64,000 bases of DNA from Azolla caroliniana. Its lineage: Eukaryota; Plantae; Polypodiophyta. The translations under genes and the position numbers were made by a program. Position 1 is the first letter of the stretch. Every line of letters starts with the position of its first letter. Under the pieces are notes generated by a model, which was given only the letters and a program-made list of their open reading frames with translations, was not told where the DNA came from and ran no database searches. Below are positions 1-52,963 of this stretch, one piece after another. The stretch is from NCBI GenBank assembly GCA_043228905.1, contig JBHGNT010000002.1:8680001-8744000 (forward strand), written 5' to 3'.

Positions 1-188
1 TTTATATAGTCATTCTCTCTCTTCATTAACTACAAGACTGATGCAGCATGGGGAATGTGAAAGCTCATAAGTTATGTGTCATAGAATATGATTCTATGAC
101 TCATACTAAATGCTAGAATACAAAGAGGTGACTCTTGACCGTTGGAGTGTCTATTCACTCTCAAGGTGAGTTCACACACTAGACCAAG

Positions 189-740
189 TTGACCTTGATT
201 CTCAATAGGGATGACAAGCTCCAGAGTGCATTATGGGCGTATTGCACCACATTCAAAACTAGCATTCAGTCTACACCCTTTCAGATGGCCTTTGGTTTGG
301 AAGCAGTCATGCCGATCGAGTTCCAAGTTCCGAGTCTCCGAGTTGAGGTTAAGGAAAGGCTACCCGAGGCCCAATCAGAGCAATATTGGTTTGAACAACT
401 CCTCGAACTCGGCAAACAACGAGTGGCCAGCATGGCTCACCTGGAACAATGCCAACGACAACGCAAAGCTTTCGTCGATCGACACTGGAAGGGTACGGAA
501 AAAGCATTTACCATCGGCAAACCGGTGCTGGTCTTCCAAACACGACTCGGTGTTATGCCAAGGAAATTACGATTTCGATGGACAGGCCCCTTCTGGATAA
601 TTGACGATTTTAACGGCACATTCCAACTCGGCAAACTTGCCGGAGACATCGTCAAGAGCTGGGTAAATGGCTTCCGACTTCGACCTTACCACGAGACGAC
701 TCCAATTAATCCTTTCAGCGAGACCGATGGCAAGGACTAG
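189..740 (+). pseudogene. Ty3/gypsy integrase C-terminal fragment
   Basis: DKLQSALWAY..TPFQMAFGLEAVMPIEF..KLRFRWTGPF..VNGFRLRPY, nearly collinear with 44750-45278. The upstream part is missing. Confidence 0.9.
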
Positions 741-1237
741 TTCACGGATGACACCTCAAAGGAGGTCGCGTGGCCCCATCGGTAAAATAATGACCTACCC
801 ACCAAATGTATATAGTAGGAATGGTTTTTAGCAGTTAAATTAGCGTTACCTAAAACTACCCAACTAGTCACGAGATTTTCTTAGGCGCATCAACTAGTTA
901 CATTCACTTTAAAATAGAATATTTAAGGAGCATGCACACTAGACATAGCACTCCTGGGACGCGTGGCCATAATACCTTATTATGGCAGCCACGACAAAGA
1001 ATCTCAAGGATCTTCTCCCTGCACAAAACCCTAGGTAGTCACATAAAAGAAACTACCCCACACACAACGCACCCACTCACACAGACGCGTTCTTGCCTTC
1101 ACCGCCTGCAAGCTCCCAAGCTCGCTCTCGTTCTCATCGCCCCTACAAACCGTCCTCCTCTCACCCTTGTAGCCCTTGCACAGAACAACAATGTTCTTCC
1201 AACTCTCTGTCTCGCCCTCGTCTCATCGCTGCACCCC

Positions 1238-4200
1238 ATGCCTCTTGTCAGCAAACCTTCGCATCCATCATGCCTCTCGCAGCATCATAGGAAAGCCATT
1301 CTTGGATACAACAACGAGGATTGGGTGGGTACTTACGGGTCATCGACGCCCCAACGCACCCTCACGCCCCAGCGATAGCACGCAGAATCCACCCTGACAC
1401 AGTATCCAACAACATGATTTGCGTGGGTCTAGACCTTGTGCGGGACGGAGACCACGAGGTCGAAATCCCTCCCCACTCGATCCTCAAGGAATATTTTGGG
1501 ATGTATTCGATGTCGGGTAAAGCTTACCGCACTTACGGAGGGCCAAACAAAGCTTTTGGGGAGATCGCTCGGATTTTGATGGAATACGCCATTGTGCATA
1601 CAAATCCCACGAGTATGCCATAGAACAAAGTTGCCATCATCATCCGAGCATATGAAGGAGACAAAATCGATTGGGGAATCATCACCGGCGAAGGAGTCCA
1701 TGCGGCGCTCGAATCTTTTCAAACCGGTAAGCGCTTGTTGCATGTGATTAATCACTTCCTCACAGTCCTCTACCCACCTCCTTCGGTTTCCCCTCATCGC
1801 ATCCTTACCTCCCCACCACCACCATGGAAACAACGAGAGAAGATTTTGGCGTTAACCCAGGAAGAATGGGAAGACCCCTCGCCTTCTCCACCTCCCTCGG
1901 CCGTTCGGAACCCTACTTCCGCCTCGGCACCACCCCTACCAAGAACACATAAACAACGGGCGTTAACAACGACCCGTGTCGAATGGGACGAAGCCGAGGA
2001 GCCCATCACGGAGGATGTCACCATACGCCAGAAAACACCAAGGACATCGATGCCCTTTCCACAACCGAGCCCATGCCCCACAAGCCAGCAGCCCTCGGGC
2101 ATACAACAACAAAAGCGGAAACAAGCCGAGGAGCCCACACCACCAGCCCCAGACTCACAGGATCAGCCGCCAAAAAGATGCTGCATCATTCGAGAGTCCA
2201 CAATAGAAACCGAGGGCACCCATCATCAGAAATCAAAAGAGGCCAACCCGACCTCCACGGCCATGGTACTAGTGGAGTCATGGCTCAAGTAAGTAGGATC
2301 GAGCATGGACAAACCACGCAGATATCAGAGGAGGAAGTCCTCGGTTACAAAGATCTCCTTGCGGAGGCATACGAGTTCAGTGCACTACTTCGACTGGGCA
2401 CAACATATGAGTTAATGGATTTCCTCGCGCACGCCCAAGTAGCTGTCGTTGCTCGTATGGCCAAGGAGCACGTGGAAACAAAGATGATCCAACACGCTCT
2501 AATGGGAGAAATTGAACCTCACGAGGATCGAGCCTTACAAAAGATAGGGTGGAAGAAGCAAGCACAAAATGCTTCTCTCCTCATGGAGCTACCAGATCTG
2601 AACACAACCTTAGTCAAGGCATATCGAAATCTGCACCACACTACTCGGGCAACCAAGGACATGGCCCAACGTATCAAAACGGCACATCAACAAGCCAAAA
2701 GGGTTACCGAGCTATGGAAAGCCGCCGAGGAGAAACTGGCATCATTCAAGTAGCAACATCCAGAACAACCGCCCTTAAGCCTCCCTGCGCCGAGTGACGA
2801 TGTCTCACCAGCCACTCTTCCGAACCTGAGCCTGCGCGTTGTGGGTACTAAAGCACACAAAGACGACACAACTCACCTAAGGGTAGCCACGGTCGATGCC
2901 AGCACAATGACAGAATTGGTATAGACAAGCGAGCCTTTGTCACGAGCAAATATAAGCCCGCACACTCAAACCAGCCACGCCTCCACGCAAACGCCACCAC
3001 CACCTATCATCATGGAACGATCGACACAGACGGATAGGGAACCCCCTCCCCGAATCCAGCAAACAGCAACCCAAATAGGGCCTCCCCTCCGGGACTACCA
3101 AGAGGAGCTTAAGGCCCAGATCGCTCTAGCTGAGTTAGCAGAACAGAACCACAACAACATTCTTGGCCAACTATGGGAACAAGCCGCGGGCCGTGAAGCT
3201 GACCTCAAGCGACTGATTGCTGAAAGCTCGGCCGCACTCAAAGAACAAGAAAGAGAGGTAATGACCCTTCAAGTCTCTATCACGGAGGCCAAAGAACGTT
3301 TCATCAATGAAGCAGAGCGGAATGGCCATTGGGAACACGAGCTCTTCGCAGAAAACTAGGAATTACGATGTCACCAAAGGGCATTACAAGAATTGGCAAA
3401 TGAACACATGCAGAAATGGAGGATCTCGGAAGAGCAAAGGGAAAAAATTTCTGATGCGTATCACCAATTGCAAACAGAGCACATCGCCGCTAGAGAATGA
3501 CATCGGGAGGCTTGGAGACAGGACATGGACGAAACTGTAGCTCAGCTCACCAAACATTATGAGCAAACAATCGCGCTCATCACCGAAAAAGCAAAAGATA
3601 ATCAAGCTACTTTAGCGCAAAAGCCAAGAAGAAGCCAAGGCCGCAAGGGAGGAAGTGGAAGTTCACCGAGCTAGCATCGGCATGGACGATACTAAAATCA
3701 AGATCCTGATCAACAAGTATCGCCAGCAATTTACCAAGACAATCGAGGAAACGCTTGACCATGTCTAGCAGGAGTGGTCAACCCAAGCCGCGGACCTACA
3801 TATACTACACGCGAATGCTGAGAACTGACGGAAAGAGGGCCGAGGGTTTTACAAGATGGATGACACCAACATCCAGACCCTCCGTGAAGACTTGACTGAG
3901 GAATATCCTACCTTAGCAGCATCCCACACCGCAACCATCGAGCAACTTTTAGAGGAATTCAATGACGATCTAATGGTGTTTCGCTTAGAAGCCGAAGCTT
4001 ACAAGGAGGAACGCCTTGCTACCGGGATTAACAGAGCTCCCACGACCAACGAGCAAGGACCCGAGCCACCCACCACGGAAGCCAGACCGGAGGAACCTGC
4101 CCCTAGAGATCCCCACATCCAACCCGAGCCACAAACTACAACCACGACCCTGCCTGAATCGGTACCAACAGAGGGTGGCACACACGACGACACAGCCATC

Positions 4201-4302
4201 CCCGAATCGACAACAAAACCTCCCTCACCAACCCCACCTTCTGAGCAGCTAGACCAACCTCGCGCCCCCAAGGATATCCTCGACATATTAGAAGAGGAGT
4301 AA
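1238..4302 (+). pseudogene. Decayed extra ORF (ORF3) of element A, coiled-coil rich
   Basis: Fragments (1321-1623, 1735-2292, 1983-2753, 2937-3359, 3856-4302) align by eye to ORF 45446-48040, e.g. GYKDLLAEAYEFSALLRLGTTYELMDFLA vs GYLDIPPVAHELAAILQFGTSYELVEWLA. Many stops and frameshifts. Start approximate. Confidence 0.8.
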
Positions 4303-4389: not shown

Positions 4390-4431
4390 CCGTGGGTTTG
4401 ACGGACAAGGTCCTGTCCCATGGGCGTGCCA
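4390..4431 (+). other. tRNA-3'-half-like hairpin ending in CCA at the PPT position (inverted PBS)
   Basis: CCGTGGGTTTG-ACGGACAAGGTCCT-GTCCCATGGGCGTGCCA, then GG, then the LTR TG at 4434. No purine tract is present. Confidence 0.75.
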
Positions 4432-4433
4432 GG

Positions 4434-4851
4434 TGTTGTCCATAGGCCAGAAATATAAATAGATTATGTAAACTCGCCATTAGGTAGAAGAGTAGGTGAG
4501 GAAATAGGTAAAACTAGAGGTAGTCGAGTTTTAGCCCTCACAATCAGCCGATGGCTCGGGTCTGTCTCAAGAAGAAAACTATATAACCCGAGTTATGCAT
4601 ACCTCCAAGAAGGAGTTTTTTCTAGATCATTTTAGGGAGATTAATATCGTAGCACCGAGCTCTGCACGAACTGTTTCGGCCGAGAGCCATGTACTGTAAT
4701 CACTGCGAGCTTATCAATTAATATAAGTTTCGCTCTTACTATTCTTTTATCTGTGTATTCTCCCGTACTCGTAAACCAAGCTCCGTTTATACCTAACAGG
4801 TGTAGCCATGTATGCTCCTTGTAATCCTGTAGAAGAGGCTTCCACATAACA
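4434..4851 (+). repeat. 3' LTR of element A
   Basis: Starts TGTTG and ends TAACA, in the same position relative to the motif as the verified LTR at 48085. The partner LTR is not in the window, so the end is inferred. Confidence 0.65.
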
Positions 4852-5004
4852 CAATCCCTTGATACCGATAGCCTGTGGGCTCATCGAAGGTGTTTCCCTA
4901 GAAATGGTTAACACAACATGTGTCACACTTAGTGGCTTAGTGGCACATGTAAACTAGTACTACCCGACAAGAAGGATAAGCGTCGGATAGAAGACTTCGA
5001 GAAG

Positions 5005-12671: not shown

Positions 12672-14255
12672 CATGTATGATTGTGTGCATATAATTGAAA
12701 ATGTGTCTAATCCCAACCTTAACCCTAGATTCTTTAGCGATGTTGTTAAGTAACACATGTTATGTTTTATGTGTCCTTTAGCAATGCCTTTTTGGAAACC
12801 AAAGATACATTGCTATGTGAAGTATTTGTTGTAGTAATTGACAAATTGACAAAATGGTTAACACGTATTGGGTGATATTTTCCATCATAGTATTCTAGAT
12901 TGTCAAATTATGAAAATGGAACAACTTGGTGAAGAGATCATGTCTTTATGATGCTCAAACTTCCACAAAGTAGGCCATAGAAGTCAAGCAAACCTTTTAT
13001 TAAGGTGTCATATCAAGGCCAATTGATTTCAACAACCATACTAAACAATTCAATATACATTGAACATTAGCTAGAAATATGTTGGAGCAATAATCCATGG
13101 GTATAGAAATTTATGGGCTAGCACATGAAAGTGAGACAAAGTGATAAGAAGAAAGTTTGCACATACACAAACCAACCAAGCTTAGGAGAAGAGGGTGATA
13201 AAGATGCATTCTTGAATTGTACATGTCATAGATAACTTTATTGCCTACTTTCATGACGAGTTGCAAAATCATGAAGACGCCTAGGCCCTAGACTCCTCAT
13301 TCTAAATTTTTGATATTACATATTTTGGGATGTTATGTTTTATTTTGACCTAATTGTGCAAAAAAGTGAGGTGCCTTGTGGGATATTATTTTATGTACTC
13401 ATCTTAGAAGCTAGATCACCATGAATTGTAACAACCTAGGTGAATGGTACTCATCTTAGAAACTCAATCACCATGTATTGTAACATTTCAAGTTAGAGCT
13501 GAAGTTGAGAGTTTGGTTGAAGGAAGTTATTATAAGCCCATAATAAATATCTTACTATATGTAGAATAAATTTGGAGATGGTTTATAAGCATGAAATGCG
13601 TATTTGAGCTACAAGTCAAGACTGAACTAAGTATTCGAGAGACATTGGTACAAGGAAATGAACCTATAAAAAAGCTTAATAGATGCATCTTAATGTCCTG
13701 GACCAGAATGAACACGGTGTGCAATTATCTCCATGATCCTGTAATGGTATAGTTCATCTACTTGATATTGGCAGTCTTTAATGTCGATAAATTTCCTTTG
13801 CTTGCTCCATGGTGATTCCTTGGAAACAAACCAGTGATGTCTAATTGTCGTTGCATCTTGCATGCTAGGATAAGAATCAATTATTTATGCTTTAGAAGCT
13901 TGAGCAAAATTTGGCTAAACTATGGTGGGCGAGCCTTATCAAAAGGAGGGTGGTTGGTGGAGATAGGAGTCGGAATGGAGGATGGCACGTTCAATTTCCA
14001 AATCGTGGGGTCAGTAGTAATGGAAAAAGAAATCATTAATTCTCTAGTCACGATGGTCAAGGTTTTCTCGCCTTTCTCAATGTTTTGTCGATGACTCTTT
14101 GACCCACGACAGATTTTTGTCAAATGAGGACATTATTGGAAGGCCTCGACCATTTTTTATATCTGTTGCTGTTGGTCGGTTTCCTCTCCAAAATTTCCAC
14201 CTCTTCATTCCCCTCCATCCTGTGGAACATATGCAAACTAGCGCAGCAACACCCG

Positions 14256-16946
14256 ATGATGAACCTCCGATGCACTCTCCATCTATTCTCAATCCTTATT
14301 GTGACCATAAATTCAGCAATGGCTGCGATGGTTATGGCGCTCCCTCCCTCTTTTGACATGGCGGTAGTGCAAGCCCAAGCCCAAGCTCTCATAGCAATCA
14401 AGGATGCCATCACCGATGACCCCACTTCTTGCCTATCCTCCTGGACCACCACCTCCACCTCCACCTCCACCTCCTCCAACTCTACTAGTAGTCATGTGGC
14501 GGCACCACCCTCCTACTGCCCCTCCAATGGCACTGCTGGCTGGTTCGGCCTGCTCTGTGATAACCGCTTCCACATTACCTCCCTCAACCTCTCCTCCTGC
14601 AGCCTCTCTGGCTCCATCTCCCCTTCCCTAGGTCTCCTCCCTTCCCTTTCTCTTCTCGATCTCTCCTACAACCACTTCTCAGGACCCCTCTCTCCCTCCC
14701 TCTTCACCAAACAACCCAACTCCTCCCTCACCTACATCGACCTCAGCTACAACGCCCTCCTCTCTGGTCACATTCCCCGTTCCCTCATCCTCAACTCCCC
14801 CAACCTCCAAACCCTGCGCCTTATCGACACTGGCCTCAGCGGTGTTGTTCCTCCAGAGTTGTGGACCCATCTCCCGACTCTTCAGCACCTCTATATCTCC
14901 GACACCTGGTCTGACTCCTCGCCTCCCCTTCTCAGCATCTTGCCCACCTCTTTTCCCCCCACTGCTAATTTCGCTTTCTGTGCTACCATTCAGGTGTTTG
15001 AACTAGATAGCCTTGATGCATCCGGGTCATCGTTTCCCTCTTCCTTGGGAGATTGCCAACAGTTGCAGATCTTGTCCTTGACTGTCGCGGGTCTACAAGG
15101 CTCCATCGCCCCATCCATTTGGCAGCTTCCTCATCTCCAGAAACTGTATATCGTAGATGTTAATGTGATGGAGACTATATATAATCATCCCGATCAGCCA
15201 CCTCCTCCCTACAAGCTCCAGGGGTCACTGCCATCCACTCTAGGTTTCTGTGGGGCGGCTGGATCTACCATCGAAGATATGTACATAGCTGGCATAAATC
15301 TCACTGGCCACATTCCTGTTTCTATAGGCACCTGTGCCTCTTTGCAGAGTCTGGAGGTCACTCAAACAAGCCTGGAAGGCCCCATGCCTTCTAGCCTCGG
15401 GAACCTCACCCAGCTACAGGTGCTGGCTTTCCACAGCAACAACCTGGAAGGCCCCATGCCTTCTAGCCTCGGGAACCTCACCCAGCTACGGTTCTTGGCT
15501 CTCCAGAGCAACAAATTCTCAGGCCCTATCCCTTCTAGCCTCGGGAACCTCGCCCAACTACTGTTCTTGGCTCTCTTCTTCAACAACTTCTCAGGCCCCA
15601 TCCCTTCTAGCCTCGGGAACCTCACTCAGCTGCAGATCTTGCATCTTGAGAGCAACAACCTCGAGGGATCCATCCCTTGTAGCCTCGGGAACCTCACCAA
15701 ACTACTGGACTTGCATCTCGACAGCAACAAGCTGACAGGAAAGATACCAGCTGCACTCGGCAGCTGCTCACTACTCACCGAGCTCCGATTAGGGTTCAAC
15801 ACTCTCAGCGGTTCCATCCCCAGTGAGCTGGGAATGCTCATAAAACTCGAGGAACTATCTCTATTTACAAACAACCTCGAAGGGATTGTCCCTGTTGACG
15901 CTTTACATAATCTGACGGCTCTTAATGTCTTACGCCTCTTTCAAAACAATTTGACTGGGAAGATAGAGAGTTTGGATCTTTCCAAGTTGCCCAATCTCGA
16001 GAGGTTTAGTGTCTTCGAAAATGCTTTAGAAGGGGGCGTGCCTGCTGGCCTAACAGAGAGTAAGGCACTGATCATCTTTGATGTGCAAAGGAATAAATAT
16101 CTCACCGGATCCTTAGGCAATACTGCTACTCCTCACATCACGGGTTTATCCAATCTCAGGGTGCTCTCGGTGAGCTACAACCAGCTAAGTGGAGACATCC
16201 CTGGTTGGGTTTGGAAGCTTCCCAGTCTGCAGGCCTTGGACCTCTCCAATAATCACTTCAGCGGCTGCTTCCCTGCGTCTCTCACGTACCTCTCCTACTT
16301 CAAGCGGAATCAAACCTCAGACAGGAACCAGACCACACTCTACGAGGATGTGCCGGTCACGATTAAGAACACTATCTTCACTCTTAAATATATTCTGAGT
16401 GCACGCATCTACATTGATGTGTCCATGAACGATCTGGAAGGCGAAATTCCGGAGAGCTTCGGGGAGCTGCAAGGTCTGACAGGAGCCAACCTATCCCACA
16501 ACAGCATTAGCGGCAGAATACCTGCGGCAACATTCGGGAGATTGATGCAGTTGGAGGTGTTGGACCTGTCCTACAACCAGCTCAGCGGTAGCATCCCACA
16601 AGATCTCACGTCTTTGGACAGCCTCTCTACTCTAAGCCTCGCCCACAACCAACTGGAAGGACCCATTCCCACACTGAACAACTTCGATACCAGGTTCACG
16701 TCTGCCAGCTTCGAGAACAACCGGGGGCTGTATGGCTGCCCTCTTTCCTCCTGCAACAACAATGCGAGTAGTAGTGATCTGGGCAGCACAAGCACAAGCA
16801 TAGGCGGGCAAACGCAACAACGATTATTGAGTGTGATTTGGTTTCGTGAGGTAGTATGTCCATGGGGACTTCTAGTAGGCTATCCGGTTGGGCTTGCACT
16901 TGGCATATTCCTCTGCCCTCCCCCCTTCTCCTTAAAATTGAAGTGA
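14256..16946 (+). CDS. Intronless leucine-rich-repeat receptor-like protein (LRR-RLP), about 896 aa; the ORF is open from 14124
   Basis: Signal-like hydrophobic N-terminus, LRRNT cap (ALIAIK..LSSW..C..WFGLLC), many plant LxxLxxLxLxxNxLxGxIP repeats, island segment, C3 LRRs, FENNRGLYGCPL cap, GxxxG-containing TM helix (WGLLVGYPVGLALGIFL), short tail, no kinase. Confidence 0.93.
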   Translation: MMNLRCTLHLFSILIVTINSAMAAMVMALPPSFDMAVVQAQAQALIAIKDAITDDPTSCLSSWTTTSTSTSTSSNSTSSHVAAPPSYCPSNGTAGWFGLLCDNRFHITSLNLSSCSLSGSISPSLGLLPSLSLLDLSYNHFSGPLSPSLFTKQPNSSLTYIDLSYNALLSGHIPRSLILNSPNLQTLRLIDTGLSGVVPPELWTHLPTLQHLYISDTWSDSSPPLLSILPTSFPPTANFAFCATIQVFELDSLDASGSSFPSSLGDCQQLQILSLTVAGLQGSIAPSIWQLPHLQKLYIVDVNVMETIYNHPDQPPPPYKLQGSLPSTLGFCGAAGSTIEDMYIAGINLTGHIPVSIGTCASLQSLEVTQTSLEGPMPSSLGNLTQLQVLAFHSNNLEGPMPSSLGNLTQLRFLALQSNKFSGPIPSSLGNLAQLLFLALFFNNFSGPIPSSLGNLTQLQILHLESNNLEGSIPCSLGNLTKLLDLHLDSNKLTGKIPAALGSCSLLTELRLGFNTLSGSIPSELGMLIKLEELSLFTNNLEGIVPVDALHNLTALNVLRLFQNNLTGKIESLDLSKLPNLERFSVFENALEGGVPAGLTESKALIIFDVQRNKYLTGSLGNTATPHITGLSNLRVLSVSYNQLSGDIPGWVWKLPSLQALDLSNNHFSGCFPASLTYLSYFKRNQTSDRNQTTLYEDVPVTIKNTIFTLKYILSARIYIDVSMNDLEGEIPESFGELQGLTGANLSHNSISGRIPAATFGRLMQLEVLDLSYNQLSGSIPQDLTSLDSLSTLSLAHNQLEGPIPTLNNFDTRFTSASFENNRGLYGCPLSSCNNNASSSDLGSTSTSIGGQTQQRLLSVIWFREVVCPWGLLVGYPVGLALGIFLCPPPFSLKLK

Positions 16947-20163: not shown

Positions 20164-23100
20164 ATGGAGTACTCAGAGCACGAACGCAGACGTAGCTCCC
20201 GCAACAGCAAAAAATCGACATTGCAGATTGAGAGCTACAACACAGAACCCGCTCGATCATCGTCCAGGTATGTTTCAGTTACAGAAACCCCAAACATTTG
20301 TTTTTTCTTTTTGACTACTGTCTGAACTTTGGTGCCGATTCATATTTCCCCAAAATCGAATAGGGCGAAGTCCTTGGAGTCCCATACAAGGATGTCTCGC
20401 AAATCGGGGAGTAGCAACAGGTGTGTTTATATTACTTTTTTTGTGTTTAATCCTGTCTTTAGTGATTAGGGTTTGTGATTGAAATGTCTGATTAGGGTTT
20501 GTGATTGAAATTTCTGATTAGGGTTTTTGATTATAAATTTCTGATTAGAATTTTTGAATAGGGTTTCTGGTTACAAATTTTGATTACAAATTAGAATTTC
20601 TGAATAGGGTTTTTGTTTATAAATTTCTGCTTAGGATTTCTGATTAGGGTTTGTGATTGAAATTTTTTATTAGGGTTTCTGATTGAAATTTCTGATTAGG
20701 GTTTTTGATTATAAATTTCTGATTAGAATTTCTGAATAAGGTTTCTGGTTACAAACTTCTGATTACAGATTTTGATTAGGGTTTCTGATTTCAAACTTCT
20801 GATTACAGATTTTGATTAGGTTAAGTTAAAGATTTTGCACCATTTTTGTTGTTGTTGATTGGGGTTTTTGATTCTCACATATTCTGATTTTGCACTATTT
20901 CTGATTTCTGAAATGATATTTCAGATGGCTCGTTCCTCCGTATACGAGAGTGCTAAACTTCGCAAAATTTTGCGAGACAAAGGAGGACTTCCACAACACC
21001 TATGGTCTGTCACTCGAGGGTGTTGACCCTGCTGTCCTAAGTGATAAATTGATCAGTGATATAGACTGGATGACAGTATATACAGTGCCTAGAGTCAAAG
21101 GCAAGGTCAAGCTGAAGCATGTACGAGCCGACTTGTACGATGACTGCATGAGACTGCACCAGAAAGTTCATCAGGAGATCCCAGTCAACAATGAGTTGTC
21201 AGTTTCATTTGCTAGAGCATTTGCATATGAGTACTGCAAAACAGCGAAGGAATCTAGAGACCCTGAAATGTATAGGGTAGCTTGGGCAGTCTATGGTGAG
21301 GCATCGGTAAAAAGATGCCGAAAGATGGGGACCTTGGCACAAAAAATAGACAGATTTTGGAGCATGGCAGCTGTTGATGCAACTGCCGACTCCCAGCAAG
21401 ACCGGGGGCATACACCACACCGACACCCAAGGAAAGCCAATGTCGATGATACAGGTGAGACATTGGTTAGCTATATGCTAAAAAATGTCCATGAAGCCTG
21501 TGAGACATTGGCATTTTTTAAGACTGATTTAGAGAAAGCCACAATGGCTTCTGCAATGGAGAGCAAAGTTACTTCTGCTGTTACAACAATTAGAAATAAG
21601 ATTCAGGTAACTATTGTTTTGCTGGTATGTGATTGTGTTATAAATAACGGGTAAAATGTGCTAATCAAGCATTATCTGGAATAGGTTGCGCAACAGGAGC
21701 TTGAATTAGAGGGGCCACTGGATCCCCAGCGTAAAATAGAACTGCAAATAGAGATCCAGGTTCTTTCAATGAACCTGGACCTTCTAGGTGTAAATACTGT
21801 TGCAGATTACAATTTGGATAAGCTTCAAGTAAGTTAACGATTCCTGAGCAAAGTTGGTGTATCTTTCAACAACAAGAATAATTAATCGGTAAATTTCTCT
21901 GTTGCGTTGAAGGAACAATACATTCATCAAGAACAGGTAGTTAGCTGCCTTAAGAAGAAGCTACATTTTGTGGAGGGAATGGTAAGGACCAGACAGGATT
22001 TGGACCTGAACATTCTTGCTCCCTTACCAAATGAAGTAGAACCAGAAAATGATTTATTGACAGTTCAAGCACGTTGCATCGCTTGCGGGTTAGGTGTGGA
22101 GGACAAAACTGTGTCTTTGTTGGTTCACCTACAACCATGCAACCACACATACCATCTGCTTTGTTTTCAACATGCCTGTCGAATTGCTGCATTCTGTTTG
22201 GGAGATTGCAGTACAACTCTACCAAATGAGTGGAGAAAACAAACAGGTATACCATACTGTAGCTAATAAGCTTAGTCTTTTCTAATTAGCTATCCTACTA
22301 GCTAATTAGCTACTGGCAGCTAATGAGCTACTAGCTAATTAGCTATCCTAGTAGCTAATTAGCTATGGTACTAGCTAATTAGCTAGTACCATAGTTGTGT
22401 AAAAAAGCTAAATAGCTATCCTACTAGCTAATTAGCCACTGGCAACTAATTAGCTATCCTAGTAACTAATTAGCTACTGCCATAGTTGTGTAAAGTAGCT
22501 AATAAGCTATCCTAGTAGCTAGTTAGCTATGGTACTAGCTAATTAGCTAGTACCATAGTTGTGTAAAAAAGCTAATTAGCTATCCTACTAGCTAATTAGC
22601 TACTGGCAACTAATTAGCTATCCTACTAGCTAATTAGCTATCCTACTAGCTAATTAGCTATCATAGTAGCTAATTAGCTACTGACATACTTGTGTAAAGT
22701 AGCTAATAAGCTATCCTAGTAGCTAGTTAGCTATGGTACTAGCTAATTAGCTAGTACCATAGTTGTGTAAAAAAGCTAATTAGCTATCCTACTAGCTAAT
22801 TAGCTACTGACATAGTTGTGTAAAGTACCTAATAAGCTATCCTAGTAGCTAATTAGCTACTGGCAGCTAATTAGCTATCCTAGTAGCTAATTAGCTACTG
22901 GCAGCTATTTAGCTGTCCTAGTAGCTAATAAGCTATCCTAGCTACTACATAGTTGAGAAAGTAGCTAATTAGCTTTCATTGTAGCTAATTAGCTATCCTA
23001 GCTACCACCATAGTTAATAAAGTAGCTAATTAGCTATCCTAGCTACTACCATAGTTAGTAAAGTAGCTAATTAGCTATCCTAGCTACTACCATAGTTGAG

Positions 23101-24885: not shown

Positions 24886-25134
24886 TTGGATATGATTGTT
24901 AGCTTAGGGATTTTGCTAGGGTTTTATGAAGTTTTACTATCCTGTTGGACAAGTAAAACCTCAGATTGGTTGTTGCTTGATCCACATTATGTAATGGAAC
25001 TCTATGATGTTTTTCCAAGATAATTTGAAGAGTGTTATTCTATGACTGAAACTCTTTGATGTTCAGGATATTGTTTTGTGAGACTAGTAGTTACTTTGTG
25101 AGTGTGAATATGTTGGTGTTTTCTGATGTTGCAG

Positions 25135-37700: not shown

Positions 37701-39271
37701 GCATCACTTCACTATCCACGGAGTCGAGTTCAATCTCACCTTTGTCGTCCCAAGATCGTCCAACCATGTAGCCTACGAGTGCTTACTAGGAAGACCATTC
37801 CTACGTATAGGCCGCCTGGTAATGGATTTTGGGACCGATATAATCTATATGCGAAAGGACAACAAAACCTTTCGCATCAAAGCATACACACAAAAAGTGC
37901 ATGAACAAGAAGGTAGCCCTCTCGTAGACAATTGGTCAGAAACCACTGAGTTCGAGATCAACCTCCTAGCGTGCAACCCCACAAAGACAGTTCAACTCTT
38001 GACTAGAGTCCAACACTTTCCTCAAAGCCTCGCCACTTCCAAAGAGGAGAACGCACGTGAGAGAGACAACCAATCCGTCGCCTCCGAGACGTCAGAAATG
38101 AATTGGGTGCAGGCTCTCACCACAACCGACGCAATGTACCCTATAGGCACAAGTGTTGTGACGAGAACGGAGAAACAATCTCATGCTTCAACGTCACCAC
38201 CCTAGGACCTCGGCGAAAAGACGTAGACGTAAAGGACGAAAAACTGGTACAACGAGTCACACGTCCAGGTGACGTCACGACCACTCAGGAGGCTATGATG
38301 GAAGCGGACTTCCCAGAGCATTTCAAACTCTATGAACAAGGGAGTAGGGCGGTGGCTTGTAAGAGACCGCAACACAACCCCCAAGGCCTAGGAGAAGTCT
38401 ATGATGGACCAACAAGGGTGAAAGAAATCAACCTCGGGAAAGGGGCAGACTCCAAACCGGTGTTCATAGCTACAGATCTCCAGCCCGACGAGGAGGCGTC
38501 CTTGATCACTCTCCTCACGGAATTTAGCGACGTGTTTGCATGGTCGTACGTCGACATGAAGGGAGTCCCAGCTGAGGTCGTCACACATAGTATCCCCATG
38601 CGAACCGACGCCCGCCCAATCCGGCAAAGGCCACGTCCAATGAACCCTAACTACGCCCAACAAGTGAAAGCCGAAATCAACAAAATGTTGGCTGTAGGCA
38701 TTATCTACCCAATCGAATGAACTACTTGGGTCTCCCCAATTGTCGTCGTCCCAAAGAAAAACGGCCAGATCCGCATATGTGTAAACTACTGCCAAGTTAA
38801 CGAAGCCACTATCAAGGACAATTACCCGGTACCCTACATTGAACATTTACTCGAAAGGACTGCGGGAGCAGAAGGGTATAGCTTCATCGACGGGTTCTCC
38901 GGGTACAACCAAATCTCGGTGGTCCCTGAGGATCAACACAAGACAGCTTTTGCCACGGAATTTGGTACGTTCGCGTATAAACAGATGCCTTTCGGACTCA
39001 CGAGCACCGTGAGCACCTACCAAAGAGCGGCGGACCATATCTTTGCCACAAGGTTACGACAAGGGGTGGAGTCTTATGTCGAAGACTTATGTTGCAATTC
39101 GAAATGGCATGACCACTCGGGGCTACTCCGTTTGAAGTTCGAAAAATGCAGAACCTATCAACTCTCTCTCAACCCGCTCAAGTGTCAGTTTTGGGTCAAG
39201 CATGAAATAATATTAGGACACGTCGTGTTCCGCCACGTGATCTCGACCGATGAGGCAAAAGTAAAACTCAT
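34736..39271 (+). pseudogene. gag, protease and RT of element B (disrupted)
   Basis: Gag LKQEANETVRDY and CCHC knuckles (CFNCQDPHMVSEC), protease IIDTGAG, RT DVFAWSYVDMKG..KTAFATEFG..MPFGL. Stops and frameshifts present. Confidence 0.9.
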
Positions 39272-39728
39272 TGTTACCCGGACCCGGACAGTCAGTTTTA
39301 CCGAACAAGTGGGAAAGCGTTGAAAACGGAGTCGGTTCGGATCGACTGTTCGGATCAATGACTCAGCAGTAAACGAAGAGAACTAAGTTAGTTAGATAAT
39401 TTTGTAATTCTTGATAGTAAGTAGGAATAGTTCTTGATGAGAAAAGACCTTCGGTATACCTATAAAAGGGAACCGAAGGCATTGTAAGAAAGGTCGTTTT
39501 ATTTAGTAATATAAGTTTAAGTTAGGAATATCCTGTACGGATTCTGTGTTCTTTCTATTGTCTATGTTGTTAAGTGCAAGCTTCCTAATTTATAACTAAG
39601 TAACGATCACGGTAATTACCGATTAATATAGTATAATTCCATTCGTAAAACACAATTCCTTGTTAGAACGTTGAGTAGCGACGTTCACTCTTCTGTATCG
39701 GTAGTAGTTAGTAATTAGCCGATTAACA
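39272..39728 (+). repeat. 5' LTR of element C
   Basis: TGTTACCCGG...GATTAACA, with a TATAAAA box at 39461. Confidence 0.97.
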
Positions 39729-39739
39729 CAGAAGAATTT

Positions 39740-39752
39740 TGGCACGCCCGGT
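39740..39752 (+). promoter_or_regulatory. PBS of element C (probably tRNA-Arg type)
   Basis: TGGCACGCCCGGT, 11 nt after the LTR. The tRNA identity is from memory of Tat-type PBSs. Confidence 0.75.
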
Positions 39753-39787: not shown

Positions 39788-42700
39788 ATGTCGTATAAAG
39801 AGGAGACACCGGTCAGTTGTAAGCGCCCTCGTACAAGGTTAGTTACGAAGGCAGTGCAGGAAGCGTTCATTGCGCAAGAACAGCCGGAATCAAGCACAAA
39901 GTGGTCGAAACTTCCTGACTTATCCGATCAATTACCTTCAGACGAAAAACAGACAGAAGAGGTATCGTTTTACGACATTTGGGACGATATGCCTTATACT
40001 TATTCTAAGTTCCGGGAAGGAACAGATGCGGAAGCACATTATAGGGATTTCTTAACGACATGGGAGATTAACCATGGAGCTTAGCGATTGTCGGCAGATG
40101 CCGAAGATAAGTCAAAAATCGCTGAGTTCGTCTTATCATTAGACGGATATTCTGCCAATTGGTTTGCGCAGAACGGTCTTCAAGGATTTCCATCCTTTGA
40201 AGTGTTAACTAGTAAATTTTTACAATTATTTCATCAACAAATTCCGCAGAAGGATTTGATTGCGCAATTTTATGCGTTATATCAAGAAAAAAATGAAACA
40301 GTATCTCAGTTTGTGATACGATTTCAGAACTTACAGCTTCAGATTTCAAGGCCGATTCCGGATAATGAATTAAAAGAAGTCTTTCTGGAAGCTGTAAAAG
40401 AACCATTAAGGACGACATTGAAAGTGTTCGATTTTCGAAATCAGACTATCGAACAAGTAATTGATAAAGCAATAGAAATGGGTCGACCACCGGTCAATGT
40501 TCAGAGTATGGACATGTCGGCATTACACCGTACATTACCGACAATAGAGGAGTTACAATTTCGACAAGCAGTTCAATGCACCACTTGTTTAAATACGGGG
40601 CATTCGGCAATTGAATGTACGTTAAGAACACATTGTACAATATGTCATTCAAAATTACATTCAGTAGAACAATGTGAATATAATCTGCTTAATAAGACTA
40701 CGGCGTCAGTATGACAAATTTTTACTGACAATGGTTACCAAAATAACACTAATCTGTTCAATGGTTATCAAAATAATAATTTTTCACAAAATCAGCAAAA
40801 TGTACAACAAAATCCGGTTCTACAGCCGAATCAGATCTTTTCACAACAAAATATGCAACCCACTCAAGTGACTCAAGCATTTCAACCAGGTTTTGCTCAA
40901 TCCAACCCACCATTCGTACAGAATCCGAATCAATATTTTCAACAAAATAATCAAAGTTTCCAACAAGGTAACCCACCATTTCAAGGGTTTCAACAGAACT
41001 GTCCGAATGTGCAACCGAATTCTACATTTCAACCAAATCCGACATTTCAACCGGGTAATATGACCTTTCAACATAATACTCAAACCGTTCCACAAAATAA
41101 TCAAATGTTTCAACAGAATAATTTTCCGCCAAATCAGGAGTTCGGGATAACACAAAATGTAGCACAACCAAATGATAATACTGAACAATTTAGGCAGAAT
41201 CGGTATAAAAACAAGAGATTTTACAAACCAAAAGCTACACGTCAATACCAACAAAACCCGAGGGGTAATGAAGAGCAGCAATTTAATAACGGCCAATTTG
41301 CACATGGAGAGACCAGTGCAACATTTGTACCCACTTGTTATATTTGTCGACAACTAGGCCATTATGCTAATCAATGTCCGGTTAAAGGAAAGGGTCCAGC
41401 AGTTAATATGGTAATACCGGAAGTTCAGCAAGTAACGATACGCAGCAAAAGCAAACAATCAGAGTGGGAAATTCAGGAAGAAGTTCGGAAGGCGGCAAAA
41501 GAATGGGTTGACGAAGCAAATCAAAGTAATGTGAATCGAATGTTACAAGACAATAACATTGACTAGAACATCGCTGTACAACAGTCATTGGGGAATAAGG
41601 AACAGGAAGAAACTTGGAAACTGTTGGCTGATTGCCAAGTGTCATTGCCACTTACGGGCTTACTTAAGTTAGTACCAAGGTTTACAGAAAAAGTGGCAGC
41701 ATTAATTGCATATAAAGATTCCGAACAAATAGCAGTACACTACAATCAGCCAAGTAATAACCCTTCGATCATGGATGAACAGAATCCGTCGATTAAGGTA
41801 ATACTTTACGGGCAAGAAATCAGAAATGTGATTATAGATGGAGGCTCGGGAGTTAATGTGATTAACAAAGCTACATGTGAAAAACTGGGAATCACGGAAT
41901 GGGAAGCATGTCCGTTTTGGTTACGAATGGCAGATACAAGTACGGTACGCCCGATTGGTTTGCTTCGACAACTGGATGTAATAATCGGGGGACACAGTTT
42001 TCAGATTTCGGCAGTAATTTTGCAGTTAGAAACACAGGGAGCATACCCCTTGTTATTGGGGAGACCATGGTTAAAGACAGCTAATATTAAACAAAATTGG
42101 AAACAAAATGTGCTAACATTTAGGAAAGGAAAAACTAAGGTCAGGATTCTGACGCACAACAAAGTGACAACAAGCAAACAGAGTTTACCTATACATGCAG
42201 AAGCAGTTAATATGATGGAAGGATTGGACGAGGAAGAAGAAAGTCAGTATTTCAATGATAATCAGAAAATCATCCCTCTATTTGAGGTAGATATTTTGCA
42301 AGCATTAACACCATATGTAGACTCACACGAAGAAGTGCCAATAGATGAGCAAACAATGAAAGAAATACGAATGCAACAAGAAGCTACAAATAAGGAAATG
42401 AAGGTATCTCAGAGAGTGCAAGCCTCAGCATTGGAGGAGATCGATTTGGTAGGAGTAGAGGATGCTGAAAGAAAAACAGTCTTGATTGCTAGAGATTTGG
42501 CGGAAAATGACAAACAGACATTAACAACATTACTATTACAATATAAAGATGTTTTTGCATGGTCGTTTGACGATATGAAAGGTCTGGATCCCGCTTTTTG
42601 TCAACATCAAATCAATTTGCATAAAGATGCAAAGCCAGTACAACAACGCAGGTACAGGTTGAATCCGAATTATGCTATCAAAGTAAAAGAAGAAATCGAT

Positions 42701-45278
42701 AAACTCTTAAAAGTAGGATTTATTCGACCCGTCAAAAAATCAACATGGCTGAGTCCGATAGTAGTAGTCCCGAAAAAGAATGGGAAAATTCGCGTATGTG
42801 TGGATTACAGAAAATTGAATGCAGCGACAATTACGGATGCGTTTCCGTTGCCATTCACAGATGGGATATTAGATGCAGTAGCGGGACATGAAATTTATAG
42901 TTTCTTGGATGGGTTCAGTGGGTACAACCAAGTACGGATGAATCCGGAAGATCAGGAAAAGACAGCTTTCGTCACAGAATGGGGTGTCTTTGTGGCAGTA
43001 GTAATGATGTTCGGTTTAAAAACAGCTCCAGCTACATTTCAGCGGGTAATACAAGAAATATTCGGGGAATATATTCCAGCTTTCATGCAGGTGTTTTTAG
43101 ATGATTTTGCGGTATATAGTCAGAAAGTTGATCATTTTGAGCATTTACGGCTATGTTTAGAAAAATGTCGAAAAGGGCGTCTTAGCTTAAATCCAGCCAA
43201 ATGCGCATTCGGAGTAATGAGTGGTACGTTACTTGGGCATATTGTCAGTCAAGAAGGGATTGCAGTGGACCCAGACAAAGTTAAAGCAATTATTGAGGCA
43301 ACACCACCAACAAATGCTAAAGCTCTAAGTAGATTTTTGGGTCAAATTCGGTGGCACAGTAGAATGATGAGATATCTAGCAGACATTGCTATTCCGTTAC
43401 ACACAGCAGTACACAAAGTTCCTTTTATATGGACAAGTATAGAACAAGATGCATACGAATGCCTCAAGAAGATGCTGACGAAGGTTCCGGTAGTTCAACC
43501 ACCGGACTGGAACAAACCATTTCATGTTTTCGTCGATGCGTCGGACATTGCCATAGGCAGTGCTTTAATGCAATTATCCGAACCAAACTGGTATAGGCCG
43601 GTATACTATGCCAGTAGGAAACTTTCGTCGGCCGAAAGAAACTATTCAACAACCGAAAGAGAAGCTTTGGGAATGATATATAGTGAACAAATTTCGACAT
43701 TACCTTTTGGGTAAGAAATTTACATTTCATGTGGATCATTCGGCTCTACTGTATCTAGTTTCCAAACAAGAATTGACAGGCAAGTTAGCCAGATGGACGT
43801 TATTGCTTCAAGAGTTTGAATTCGACATTATACATCGACCAGGAGCACAGCACGCGATTGCTGACTATCTCAGTCGGCTTGAGTCTGGAGAAGAAGCGGT
43901 TGGGGTTAAAGATGATTTTCCACATACTCAATTATTTCGGGTTGAGGCAGTAAAAGCACAAGAAGTGAATGAGGAAAAAGAGGATGAATGGATTTCCGAA
44001 ATGACGATATTTCTATCAACAGGAATTCCGGCCGAACACATGTCGACAGATGAAAGAAAAAGAATTGCAGTACGAAGTCGAAATTTTTGTTTATTTAATG
44101 ACATGTTGTATCATAAAGGAGCGGATGGAATATGGCGAAGGGCAGTACGGAAATTTGAAAAATCAGCCATATTAACAGAGTCACATTGTGGAATTGCTGG
44201 CGGTCATTACGCAGGAGAAGCAACAGCCAGAAAAATATGGAATAGCGGGTTATGGTGGCCAACGGTGATGAAAGATGCTAACGAATACTGTAAGAAATGC
44301 GATTTGTGTCAAAGAATGGGGCAACCGATCGAAAAGGATCGAATGCCTTTTCAACCGGTTTTACCTCTTGAGCCATTTCAGAAATGGGGCTTAGATTTTG
44401 TTGGCCCATTCAAACCAGCAGCTGCAAGAACCGGTAATCGATATATCATAATTGCGACTGACTATTGCACAAAATGGGTTGAAGCAAAAGCTCTCAGGGA
44501 CAATACAGCAGCATCCACAGCAAAATTCCTGTATGAAAATATATGGTGTCGATTTGGTTGCCCAATAGAATTGGTAAGCGATCAAGGCACTCATTTTATT
44601 AACAAGTTAATTAACGAATTAACCAATTACTATGCCGTAGTTCATAAGAAAAGTACGCCTTACTATCCCCAAGCTAATGGATTGGCAGAATCGACAAATA
44701 AAACAATTCAAACAATTTTAAAGAAGATAGTGAATGAAAATCGTACTGATTGGGATCAAAAGTTAAATAGTGCATTATGGGCATATCGTACTTCGTACAA
44801 ATCATCCATTAAATCAACACCTTTCCGAATGGCATTCGGACTTGAAGCCGTTATGCCGATCGAATTTCAAATTCCAACACTTCGTATCCAAGCGATGAAT
44901 AAGTTAAATGAAATAGAATCGGAGCAGATACGCAAAGAGGCTTTATTAGTATTAGAAGAAGAACGGATTCAATCAATGTCAGCACTAGAACACAAGCAGA
45001 GACAAATCAAGGCATTCGTAAATTGACATCGAAGGAAATCGGAAGAGCAATTCGAAATTGGGAAATCGGTATTGGTATTCCAGACGAGAATGGGACTTAT
45101 GCCTGGGAAACTCCGGTATAGATGGACAGGTCCAGTATGGATAATTAATAGTAAAAATGGTACGTATCAGCTGGGATCATTAACCGGAGAGGTTTTACCG
45201 AAATGGGTAAATGGATTCCGGCTTAAACCGTATTTGGGAGATATGCCGGTGAATCCGTTTATTCAAACGGAAGAGTAA
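39788..45278 (+). pseudogene. gag-pol of element C (Gag with 3 CCHC knuckles and a Q/N-rich tract, PR, RT, RH, INT)
   Basis: A single frame from 39788 to about 43683 is broken by stops at 40082, 40712 and 41564; there is a frameshift near 43683 and a stop at 45024. Motifs IIDGGSG, FLDDF, VDASD..ERE, GHY..C..C, LDFVGP, SDQG, QANGLAE. Confidence 0.95.
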
Positions 45279-45583
45279 AAAAAAATAAAAAAAATAAAAA
45301 GAATATAAAAAAAATAAAAATAAAAAAATAAAAAAAAACTAACTAACTCACTCAATAGTTCTTGTCAAATGCAAAAATACAATCTTGCCATAACAGTCTG
45401 AATCGACTATAAATAGAAAGAGGAATTGCATGATTATTAAAACGAGTGCAGATATCGAAACAGTCTGAGCCTTCGTGCCCTAGTTCGCCCAAACTCTGTT
45501 TTTCTGATTTTCATCGCTACAGAAGCTGTGCAGATCTCCAACCGTCATCGACAAGTGATTCAGAACAAGCAAACACAGAAGTC

Positions 45584-48040
45584 ATGCCGATTCCTGTGTC
45601 TGAAGAACTGCGACTATGGCTTCATGAGAGAAACTTACAAGGTTTCATCAAAGTAGCAGAAGCGGAACCTCATCCGCAGGCGGAAGAATTGGTACAACAG
45701 TTAGACATCACCAAGGTCACCACAAAGAAAATACGAAATGCATTACAGATGCCAAGAGGAGGCTTTGAGGCAGTTAAAAAACCTTCATCAGAAGCACTCC
45801 AATTGTATTTCGGGGAATACTCACCCTCGGCAAAAGCATATCAGACTTATGGAGGTCGGGATGAGTTTTTCCATGAAGTGGCTAGATTTTTACTAGAGGT
45901 GGGATTTGTCAGTCCCCGTTTTTATTGTATGCCGAAAAAAAGGGCTGGGTTTATCATAGCCGCATACGAAAAGGAGGATTTCAACTGGCCACTATTGTCG
46001 GGGGAAGCTCTGAGAGAGCAGCTACAAGGGGTGAAAACAGGAAAACCAATGAAGCAAATTTTTGGTCGTTGGCTATCGGTATTGTTTCCGATTCAAGAAT
46101 CGGAAATTCCTGTTCAGTCAAGAAGACCACCGATAGTACAAGCACCGCGAAGACACCGACAGGTAGTACATGAAGAATGGATAGAGGAAGAATCGGCACA
46201 TGCCGATAATATACAAACGGATACGCCTCAGTCGGAACCACCAAGACCAGAGAATTCCGAAAACCGGCAACCAGCAGCCGAACAAGAAACAGTTGACCAT
46301 TTGATAAACAAGCAGCAGCCGACAGAAAATCGACAACAACCAGAGAAGATGCGACAAAGGACAAGGGTTAAACAAAAGGCTAATAGGCAATTCCAACCAG
46401 AAAACAGTGATGGGTCAGCACCGAAAAGGCAACGCACAAAGGAAAATTCGAATACGCTTGTAGTAGCAGAAGTAATAAAACCAGGGAATGAGAGCGTTTC
46501 GACACAACCTCAACAAGGCCAATCTTCAAAAGTAGCAATTCGGGAAGCACATGGGTACTTGGATATTCCACCAGTAGCACATGAATTAGCTGCCATTTTA
46601 CAGTTCGGAACTTCATACGAACTGGTTGAATGGTTGGCTAAAAGATTGACAGAAGTATCAGAACGGCTGGCTCAAGAACATAATGACCGAATAATGATAC
46701 AGAAAGCCTTACGAGGAGTGTTGGAACCTCAAGAAAAAGCAGAGATAGAGAAAATCGGCCGGAAAAGAAGTGCACAGAATAGAGGGGAGGCTATTGAAAT
46801 GCCACCATTACATGAAGCACTGGTCGAAATTCATAAAGAATATGAAACGGCACGCAAAGCAGCCAGTGATATGGCTGAAAGATACAAAAGTGTATCAGCA
46901 TCGGCGGAGGTGCTGAAACATCAGTTTTGTAACATACATGCAGAAAATAAAGAACTAAAAGAAAGTCTAAACAAATGGGAAACGCAGGCACGGCTTATGG
47001 CGTCGGAGTCAGAATGGCAGCAGAAATTGGAGGATGCTGAGAAAGTACGACAAGCAGAAACAACAAGGGCCAACAATTCTGTATTTCGAACTACAGAATT
47101 AGAAAAACAAATAGAAACCATTCAGAATGGCCAATACAAAGTTCTCGAAGAAAAAAATCAATTAATAAACGAATTACAGAAAAATCTGGAAGAAGCTAAG
47201 ACGGCCAATCATACATATACCGAACAAATTGAAGAATTCGAAAGGTATATAGTGTCACAGGAAAGTCAATTGACAGAAAAAGAGCGGAGTCTTGAAGAAG
47301 TCAACAGAAGAATTACGGAACACCAGGAGGAATGGAGCAAAGAGAAATCGACATTCGAACAACAACTAAACGAAATTCGGAAGATATCGGAACAAAGGCG
47401 GCTGGACATATATGTAGTCGAATCCAAATTAATGCGGGCTGAAAGTGAAAACCGAGCCACTATTACGGATTTACGGAAAGAGTTGCAAGCCACTCAATTC
47501 GTCGCAAGCATCACTAGGGACAAAGTGCAGCGCATCATAGGGAAACATCGAAACCTAGCAAAGGAAATGATCAATGAATCCCTTGCGCAAGGATGGAAGT
47601 TATGGACGGCACAAGCGGCGGAATTACAGTTATTGCGTGCCGACAAAAATAACCGTCAGGTCCAAGGTGCAGGTTTTTTTAAAATAGCACAAAAGGATAT
47701 TGACAATATCCAAGAGGATATCATGAAAGATATGGACGAAATTGCGGCATTTTACAGAGAAGAAATTCAACGTATTATGCAAGAATTGGACAAACATGAT
47801 ATAGGCACTTCCGTTCAGTTGGATAAAATTGAAGCTGAAAGAACCAGCAACACTCCTGGTCTTCAAACTCCTGGAAGAAGTGAACCAGAGCAGCCAACCG
47901 AATCACAACATTCAAAACCTGCTCCGAATGACGACTGTGACACAGAAGAAGAGGAAGATATAGAGGGAATACATCCAAGGCCAGAAGAGCCTTCGATTTT
48001 TGATATTCTGAACGATTCGGATGAAGAGCTACAAGAATAG
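45584..48040 (+). CDS. Extra ORF3 of element C, about 818 aa, intact: globular N-terminus, disordered linker, long coiled coil, acidic tail
   Basis: The frame is open from 45446. TATAAATA at 45408 lies upstream. It is homologous to the decayed ORF at 1238-4302. No evident TM helix. Confidence 0.85.
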   Translation: MPIPVSEELRLWLHERNLQGFIKVAEAEPHPQAEELVQQLDITKVTTKKIRNALQMPRGGFEAVKKPSSEALQLYFGEYSPSAKAYQTYGGRDEFFHEVARFLLEVGFVSPRFYCMPKKRAGFIIAAYEKEDFNWPLLSGEALREQLQGVKTGKPMKQIFGRWLSVLFPIQESEIPVQSRRPPIVQAPRRHRQVVHEEWIEEESAHADNIQTDTPQSEPPRPENSENRQPAAEQETVDHLINKQQPTENRQQPEKMRQRTRVKQKANRQFQPENSDGSAPKRQRTKENSNTLVVAEVIKPGNESVSTQPQQGQSSKVAIREAHGYLDIPPVAHELAAILQFGTSYELVEWLAKRLTEVSERLAQEHNDRIMIQKALRGVLEPQEKAEIEKIGRKRSAQNRGEAIEMPPLHEALVEIHKEYETARKAASDMAERYKSVSASAEVLKHQFCNIHAENKELKESLNKWETQARLMASESEWQQKLEDAEKVRQAETTRANNSVFRTTELEKQIETIQNGQYKVLEEKNQLINELQKNLEEAKTANHTYTEQIEEFERYIVSQESQLTEKERSLEEVNRRITEHQEEWSKEKSTFEQQLNEIRKISEQRRLDIYVVESKLMRAESENRATITDLRKELQATQFVASITRDKVQRIIGKHRNLAKEMINESLAQGWKLWTAQAAELQLLRADKNNRQVQGAGFFKIAQKDIDNIQEDIMKDMDEIAAFYREEIQRIMQELDKHDIGTSVQLDKIEAERTSNTPGLQTPGRSEPEQPTESQHSKPAPNDDCDTEEEEDIEGIHPRPEEPSIFDILNDSDEELQE

Positions 48041-48082
48041 GCGTGGGTTCGCTGGACAAGGTCCTGGCCCACGGACGTGCCA
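48041..48082 (+). other. tRNA-3'-half-like hairpin ending in CCA at the PPT position (inverted PBS)
   Basis: GCGTGGGTTCG-CTGGACAAGGTCCTG-GCCCACGGACGTGCCA, then AG, then the LTR TG at 48085. Confidence 0.8.
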
Positions 48083-48084
48083 AG

Positions 48085-48541
48085 TGTTACCCGGACCCGG
48101 ACAGTCAGTTTTACCGAACAAGTGGGAAAGCGTCGAAAACGGAGTCGGTTCGGATCGACTGTTCGGATCAATGACTCAGCAGTAAACGAAGAGAACTAAG
48201 TTAGTTAGATAATTTTGCAATTCTTGATAGTAAGAGGGAATAGTTCTTGATGAGAAAAGACCTTCGGTATACCTATAAAAGGGAACCGAAGGCATTGTAA
48301 GAAAGGTCGTTTTATTTAGTAATATAAGTTTAAGTTAGGAATATCCTGTACGGATTCTGTGTTCTTTCTATTGTCTATGTTGTTAAGTGCAAGCTTCCTA
48401 ATTTATAACTAAGTAACGATCACGGTAATTACCGATTAATATAGTATAATTCCGTTCGTAAAACACAATTCCTTGTTAGAACGTTGAGTAGCGACGTTCA
48501 CTCTTCTGTATCGGTAGTAGTTAGTAATTAGCCGATTAACA
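48085..48541 (+). repeat. 3' LTR of element C
   Basis: About 99% identical to 39272-39728 by manual comparison. Confidence 0.97.
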
Positions 48542-52900: not shown

Positions 52901-52963
52901 CGACGCCCGAAGCTCCCCTCCCATAGTGCACTCGGGAGTGTGCACTCATTAGGTTGGGGGGGA

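Follow-up and report, generated by a model that had tools for sequence, protein, structure and literature searches.

The window, that is, the whole 64,000-nt stretch of Azolla caroliniana DNA analysed here, carries a full-length Gypsy element (element C) with a TG...CA pair of LTRs, a 5-bp TSD (39267..39271 on the left, 48542-48546 on the right) and the order gag-RT-RH-INT; the parts of elements A and C described below, and the tract of element B, lie on the forward strand. Its 5′ LTR (39272..39728) is 98.9% identical to its 3′ LTR (48085..48541), and its PBS (39740..39752), which lies 11 nt past the LTR, is complementary over 13 nt to the commonest tRNA-Arg 3′ end that we retrieved. Several ORFs at 40085..45026 encode gag, a zinc knuckle, RT, RNase H and integrase, and they are followed by ORF3 (45434..48040), which encodes 868 aa and has no Pfam match. 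No protease was matched by Pfam in the ORFs of C at E 0.001, and neither an aRH nor a chromodomain was matched; the precomputed, Pfam-level domains of its closest homologues did not include an aRH either. The N-terminal part of one ORF3 homologue (P0001) resembled Athila ORF-1/Transposase_32 structure clusters, at a level below the bar of the tool.

The nearest named relatives of the C RT came from Riccia, Adiantum and Marchantia (about 46-54% identity). In a quick tree built from 48 rows, namely 22 named proteins and the top matches, kept if covering at least 330 aa, C fell into a clade of 10 proteins (SH-aLRT 99) beside a fern-containing clade (90). According to the accessible part of Neumann et al. 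(2019, PMC6317226), Athila and Tat/Ogre/Retand resemble C in their 5-bp TSD, non-Met tRNA PBS, extra ORF after pol and lack of a chromodomain; tRNA-Arg PBSs are common in Ogre, TatIII and Retand, and those of Athila are mostly of the Asp (72%), Asn or Ala type. We rejected membership in Tat on the lack of an aRH match at the Pfam level, and membership in typical Athila on the PBS, which is Arg-type and not Asp, Asn or Ala; without aRH or chromodomain and with an Arg-type PBS, C thus fits neither group as described there. The 3′ end of C was present in 20 of the 24 sequencing runs listed, which bore four organism labels besides plant metagenomes, and C was covered in 30/30 bins in each of four runs examined.

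Element C has inserted into a second Gypsy element, B (33509-53531), within its RT/RNase H region. B has an Asp-type PBS at 33990, groups with fern proteins and is 46-49% identical to C in RT-RH. B has a G-rich PPT-like tract (52951..52963; for comparison only, with the start of its LTR approximate). Near their 3′ ends, both LTRs of B hold a T-arm or B-box-like sequence (33925-33940 and 53473-53488), a possible Pol III promoter by analogy with Helenus. The window also contains an ORF for a 947-aa LRR protein (14103-16946), a host gene among the retrotransposons, an ORF with a NIF domain (25050-26189), and palindromic 20-bp tandem arrays at 22200-24370 and 28530-29850 with many sub-threshold miRNA matches.

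The left end of the window is occupied by element A, judged from its sequence to be a 5′-truncated relative of C. It comprises an integrase C-terminal remnant (183..740; 61% identity to the C integrase over 90 aa), a broken ORF3 (1153..4302) and a putative 3′ LTR (4434..4913; TGTT...TTAACA), the edges of which were inferred from two related loci, L052 and L073. The similarity to these loci extends to 4895, and the end at about 4913 is inferred for an LTR that has no partner in the window. As had been stated in the preliminary description, ORF3 of A has diverged strongly, with only 30-38% protein identity to that of C in three segments, and the LTRs of A and C are dissimilar: their first 150 nt are 48% identical, which is near background, and blastn gave a sole match of 20 nt at E 4.7.

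A 42-nt motif in front of the 3′ LTR

We found the 42-nt motif of element A where it had been placed, at 4390..4431, followed by GG (4432..4433) and then TGTTG. The motif, which lies 87 nt downstream of the end of ORF3, consists of an outer stem, a 4-nt bulge, an inner hairpin and a 10-nt tRNA-Arg-like tail ending in CCA (4422..4431); on the minus strand the tail reads as a PBS. The 2-nt spacer between CCA and the LTR may provide a predicted cDNA-end overhang. The motif of C (48041..48082) starts directly after the ORF3 stop, has one G-to-A change in its tail and is followed by AG and by the LTR at 48085, so that CCA plus 2 nt precedes the LTR in both elements, as had been noticed. In C, where the LTR edge is certain, the gap between the ORF3 stop and the 3′ LTR is wholly occupied by the motif, with no PPT in front of the LTR.

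By blastn, positions 4391-4437 matched 48042-48088 with 85% identity over 47 nt (E 2.8e-9), and the remaining nucleotide matches of note between A and C were confined to the integrase tail. The shared core was indeed present, but its 13 nt alone are weak evidence, as a search with up to 2 mismatches gave 4 matches against 1.1 expected, a number reached in 3/100 shuffles. The outer stem was likewise found in both copies, but not at one length (7 bp with one G-U in A, 6 bp in C). The last 10 nt of the A motif proved to be the exact complement of the C PBS at 39740-39749, and no other exact complement of this PBS core occurs in the window; the tail of C itself has one mismatch to the PBS of C. 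We found no copy of the motif in element B.

Folding of the A and C copies was no more stable than that of shuffles (z 0.50 and 0.19). ARAGORN detected no tRNA gene in the whole window, and comparison of the motif with Rfam gave no relevant match and none to tRNA. We therefore rejected the motif as a tRNA gene, given no cloverleaf in the window by ARAGORN and no Rfam tRNA match. A Helenus-type TRIM feature was also rejected, as the motif lies outside the LTR and the PPT is absent.

Further copies and the polypurine tract

Metagenome contigs were searched with a pattern that fixed the outer stem and the tail only and left the inner hairpin free. The search retrieved 96 stretches in 95 loci, which with the two window copies make 98 copies and 39 distinct sequences. 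The 79 of the 95 loci that were listed all belong to one accession series, and the copies look as if they came from one narrow plant group. Viral contigs gave 4 pattern matches, none with a hairpin or a tRNA, which we took as chance, and no match to a collapsed tRNA-type pattern. A covariance model, one step of the check proposed in the preliminary description, was built and found five more copies beyond the pattern; three of them were full length, the 3′ stem strand was kept, NN-TG followed all five, and their tails differed by transitions only. Many loci carry relatives of ORF3 with about 25-45% identity to C.

The test named for the motif was its position at LTR boundaries. NN-TG, which was outside the search pattern and hence unselected, followed the motif directly in 94/98 copies, and the base before TG was G in 91/96, which fits the C present after the LTR end. 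A TA spacer was seen at L016, L018, L019, L041, L049, L054 and L055; in these families the LTR may start 1-2 nt later, with a spacer of 3-4 nt.

Both PBS and motif have been kept at ten loci whose internal DNA measures 1.1-2.3 kb and contains no stop-free stretch longer than 168 aa, which is how cis signals should behave. L009, L014, L015, L021, L027, L036, L040, L044 and L050 are non-coding derivatives whose internal DNA measures 1.5-2.3 kb, and some stand in tandem with one LTR in common. The PBS core of the short derivatives is the same 10 nt as elsewhere in the lineage, and 15 of the 22 AACA-to-PBS spacers counted put it 2 nt after the LTR end, a distance confirmed in L040 against the 3′ LTR end; the two ends of these elements thus mirror each other. 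The clade of C (window 39729-39739; L006, L078, L042) has an LTR-PBS spacer of 10-11 nt as against 2 nt in the short derivatives, and the bases that come directly after its PBS are similar to the start of the LTR in reverse complement. In L031 (353-913 in motif-strand orientation), an inverted LTR stands immediately ahead of a PBS-like tail and the sequence that normally comes after the PBS, the arrangement to be expected if a template switch or inversion had swapped tail and PBS; this may be a misassembly, as the locus is a single contig of low coverage that contains a large palindrome, and its spacer is 1 nt instead of 2.

A PPT next to the 3′ LTR was absent from the 98 copies: within 45 nt upstream of the LTR, purine runs reached 6 at most, and the last 15 nt before the LTR had a mean purine share of 0.56. 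Over about 62 nt a purine run reached 8 in 19/96 copies, and run length over this distance failed to discriminate these copies from element B; only the LTR-adjacent run separates them. In this Gypsy lineage, a tRNA-end hairpin stands where the PPT normally sits. The absence of the PPT is a departure within Ty3/gypsy and casts no doubt on superfamily membership.

Conservation, pairing and likeness to tRNA-Arg

Sixty-four of the 98 copies had 150 nt on both sides and formed 12 clusters at 70% flank identity (20 at 80%). Over 66 pairs of representatives of the 12 flank-defined clusters, the inner 18 nt were 67% identical, as compared with 42-47% in flanking windows of equal size and 45% in shuffled sequence, indicating that the motif is conserved beyond its neighbours, the second test that had been named. 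The flanks split into 42-44% upstream and 46-47% inside the LTR, and the first 18 nt of the LTR reached 58%.

None of the six inner pairs had been fixed by the search pattern. They were paired in 93.2% of 234 cells (39 distinct sequences), and five of the six showed changes on both sides (46 cells). The paired share and the covariation score were reached by 0/500 shuffles, and slid controls were at most 39.5% paired. Two type-counting covariation measures did not reach significance (153 and 247 of 500); the relatedness of the copies inflates the remaining measures, as kin sequences can beat shuffles without structure. RNAalifold predicted a 5-bp stem, a 4-nt bulge, 2 bp, a U bulge, 4 bp, a triloop and the 10-nt tail, a bulged hairpin that may resemble HBV epsilon or HIV TAR. 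The invariance of outer stem and tail was fixed by the search pattern and is hence biased, and wobble pairs pointed to neither strand (of 553 cells, 14 were of the G-U type and 10 of the A-C type).

Inner identity, compensatory changes and the position at the LTR edge together support selection on the motif, more strongly now than when it was first suggested. The two window copies had been called independent, which is wrong phylogenetically, as A and C are relatives by descent. The argument against a one-off tRNA capture holds in that neutral retention is refuted, but a single ancestral capture of a tRNA-Arg 3′ end, maintained by selection, is still the likely origin of the motif.

When the inner hairpin was collapsed to a 7-nt loop and one acceptor base was added, 31 of the 34 bacterial loci matched by this pattern were tRNA-Arg genes, indicating that the motif corresponds to the T-arm, the acceptor 3′ strand and CCA of tRNA-Arg, with the hairpin in the T-loop. 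The term tRNA-like is apt for the T-arm and acceptor 3′ strand only; the tRNA 5′ half is absent. One base is missing in the acceptor strand relative to tRNA-Arg, in a comparison for which bacterial tRNAs stood in and from which the tRNA-Arg of the host may differ. The 3′ end of plant tRNA-Arg(UCU) we take to be the same as the motif end. ARAGORN found only 2 tRNA-Lys genes and no tRNA-Arg in the 95 plant loci, and a literature search with the motif letters and the tRNA-Arg 3′ end returned nothing relevant.

The C PBS fits tRNA-Arg over 13 nt and the usual motif over 11. Between the bacterial tRNA-Arg 3′ end and a minus-strand copy of the motif, the predicted pairing was about 22-26 bp with the hairpin extruded, RNA parameters serving as proxy. 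The G-to-A tail change was found in four C-family copies (C, L006, L069, L080); opposite a tRNA it would form a G-T wobble, whereas opposite the PBS it would form an A-C mismatch (-17.6 vs -22.8 kcal/mol). The PBS was unchanged in C and L006, and the deepest PBS contigs of three runs showed one difference from the window, which, judging from mismatch counts, probably lies outside the PBS.

Priming of the plus strand

For LTR retroelements and retroviruses, plus-strand synthesis from a PPT is, to our knowledge, regarded as near-universal. On sequence evidence, this lineage has probably given up the PPT in favour of a symmetric reverse transcription in which both strands would be primed by a tRNA 3′ end. 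The fixed CCA-NN-TG geometry suggests that the plus-strand primer very probably ends at CCA, and there is good reason to expect tRNA-type priming of the plus strand of some kind. For the form that this takes, we favour, at roughly even chances, a host tRNA-Arg that would anneal to minus-strand DNA at the motif, which would then be a mirror-image PBS. First, tRNA-Arg at the normal PBS would start the minus strand. RT would then copy the motif and RNase H would clear the RNA, so that minus-strand DNA presents a PBS. Pairing with the tRNA would span the 10-nt tail, and perhaps the T-arm in full, while the inner hairpin would loop out and may serve as a recognition or pause element for RT or Gag. 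Synthesis from CCA would finally yield NN-TG, and both cDNA ends would carry a short overhang for integrase. In the boldest form of the idea, the element's own tRNA mimic would prime both strands.

A host tRNA-Arg as primer would keep the sequence tRNA-like and would be compatible with the persistence of the G-to-A tail change in the C family. We count for it the NN-TG geometry, the symmetry of the two ends, the missing PPT, the likeness to tRNA-Arg and the non-coding derivatives. Against it we count that a hairpin under conservation is more readily understood as a feature of RNA; that pairs 12-28 covary so as to keep self-pairing even where they depart from the tRNA sequence; that the LTR-PBS spacer of C is 11 nt, so that end symmetry is not universal; and that the motif has one acceptor base fewer than tRNA-Arg.

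The main rival is that the motif in the element's own RNA acts as the plus-strand primer: a cut after CCA would leave a tRNA-like piece annealed by its tail, and the hairpin would pause RT or position RNase H as a structural replacement of the PPT. We regard this as possible and rather doubtful. It fits the NN-TG geometry and the position equally, explains the hairpin and its compensatory changes more simply, and makes the annealing of a folded tRNA to DNA unnecessary; the unpaired tail is exactly 10 nt, and the distance of about 13 bp between polymerase and RNase H in Ty3 RT, as given in the accessible part of the Ty3 source (PMC5371799), is close to tail plus spacer. However, it leaves unexplained why the tail equals both the tRNA-Arg end and the PBS complement while ORF3 has drifted to 30%, it requires a precise cut in non-purine sequence, and the fold is no more stable than shuffles.

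The same cut could instead supply a minus-strand primer that acts at the PBS, and possibly primes both strands; we hold this 3′ counterpart of Tf1/Tcn1 self-priming to be improbable. Tail and PBS core are complementary, both over 10 nt, in most families, and a lasting mismatch between them would be tolerable, as the accessible part of the same source (PMC5371799) describes the PBS of Ty1/Ty3 as not inherited from the primer; for that reason we also gave little weight to the argument that self-priming would convert the PBS. Such self-priming is opposed by the A-C mismatch of the C family, where the tail has changed in four copies with the PBS unchanged in C, in L006 and, by inference, in the deepest contigs of the three runs, by the extension of C's PBS to 13 nt against tRNA-Arg, and by the cut itself, which would sever U3-R from that RNA.

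A structural RNA signal, active in 5′-3′ end pairing with the PBS, in dimerisation or in packaging while the plus strand is primed otherwise, is similarly improbable. The tail can pair with the PBS, the pairing could run on into the terminal inverted repeats of the LTRs, Ty3 RNA ends are bridged through a bipartite PBS (PMC5371799, accessible part), and the motif is kept in non-coding derivatives, but there is no alternative PPT at the LTR edge and the constant 2-nt distance to the LTR suggests a primer end. Finally, a neutral relic of one tRNA capture, or chance, is very improbable and largely refuted: folding z-scores are near 0 and kin can beat a shuffle control, but the inner part is far more alike than its flanks (67% vs 42-47%), 93% of cells are paired against at most 40% in slid controls with 46 cells changed on both sides, and the position at the LTR edge is constant.

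Compared with known systems, the lineage resembles Ty3 in Gag-RT-RH-INT order, LTRs, a tRNA-type PBS and a short TSD; Ty3 has a bipartite PBS with extended tRNA T-arm contacts and primes its plus strand from a 12-nt purine tract (PMC5371799, accessible part). In contrast, the elements described here lack a PPT and carry a tRNA-like sequence in sense orientation on their RNA, so that pairing with a tRNA is impossible until the motif is copied into DNA. Tf1/Sushi, Tcn1 and TAR also hold a sequence complementary to their own PBS, but they take their self-primer, which has no tRNA origin, from the 5′ LTR transcript end (PMC6317226, accessible part), whereas the complement here is found immediately beyond the edge of the 3′ LTR, at the presumed site of plus-strand priming. 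The Helenus, Ajax and Cassandra TRIMs are likewise LTR elements with small-RNA-derived sequence; in the accessible part of Kojima (2024, PMC10886601), this sequence forms a Pol III promoter within the LTRs, the PPT is kept, and complementarity to the PBS was looked for and not found. The present motif takes the place of the PPT in the internal region; it is complementary to the PBS, and elements of autonomous type carry it. Neumann et al. (2019, PMC6317226) distinguish three minus-strand primer types and, in the accessible part, do not mention replacement of the PPT; the literature that we searched, mostly outside subscription papers, held no description of PPT-less elements or of elements with a tRNA-primed plus strand.

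A tRNA-end hairpin in place of the PPT is a new variation of Ty3/gypsy replication signals. Programs that search for LTR elements and either demand a PPT or score it would overlook such elements or orient them wrongly, as a PBS is apparent on both strands. If the proposed priming is true, RT and RNase H tolerate a primer of tRNA type in second-strand synthesis, and this PPT-free, high-copy, recently active plant lineage would be a natural system in which to study the properties that make a plus-strand primer and the way in which the left cDNA end is fixed.
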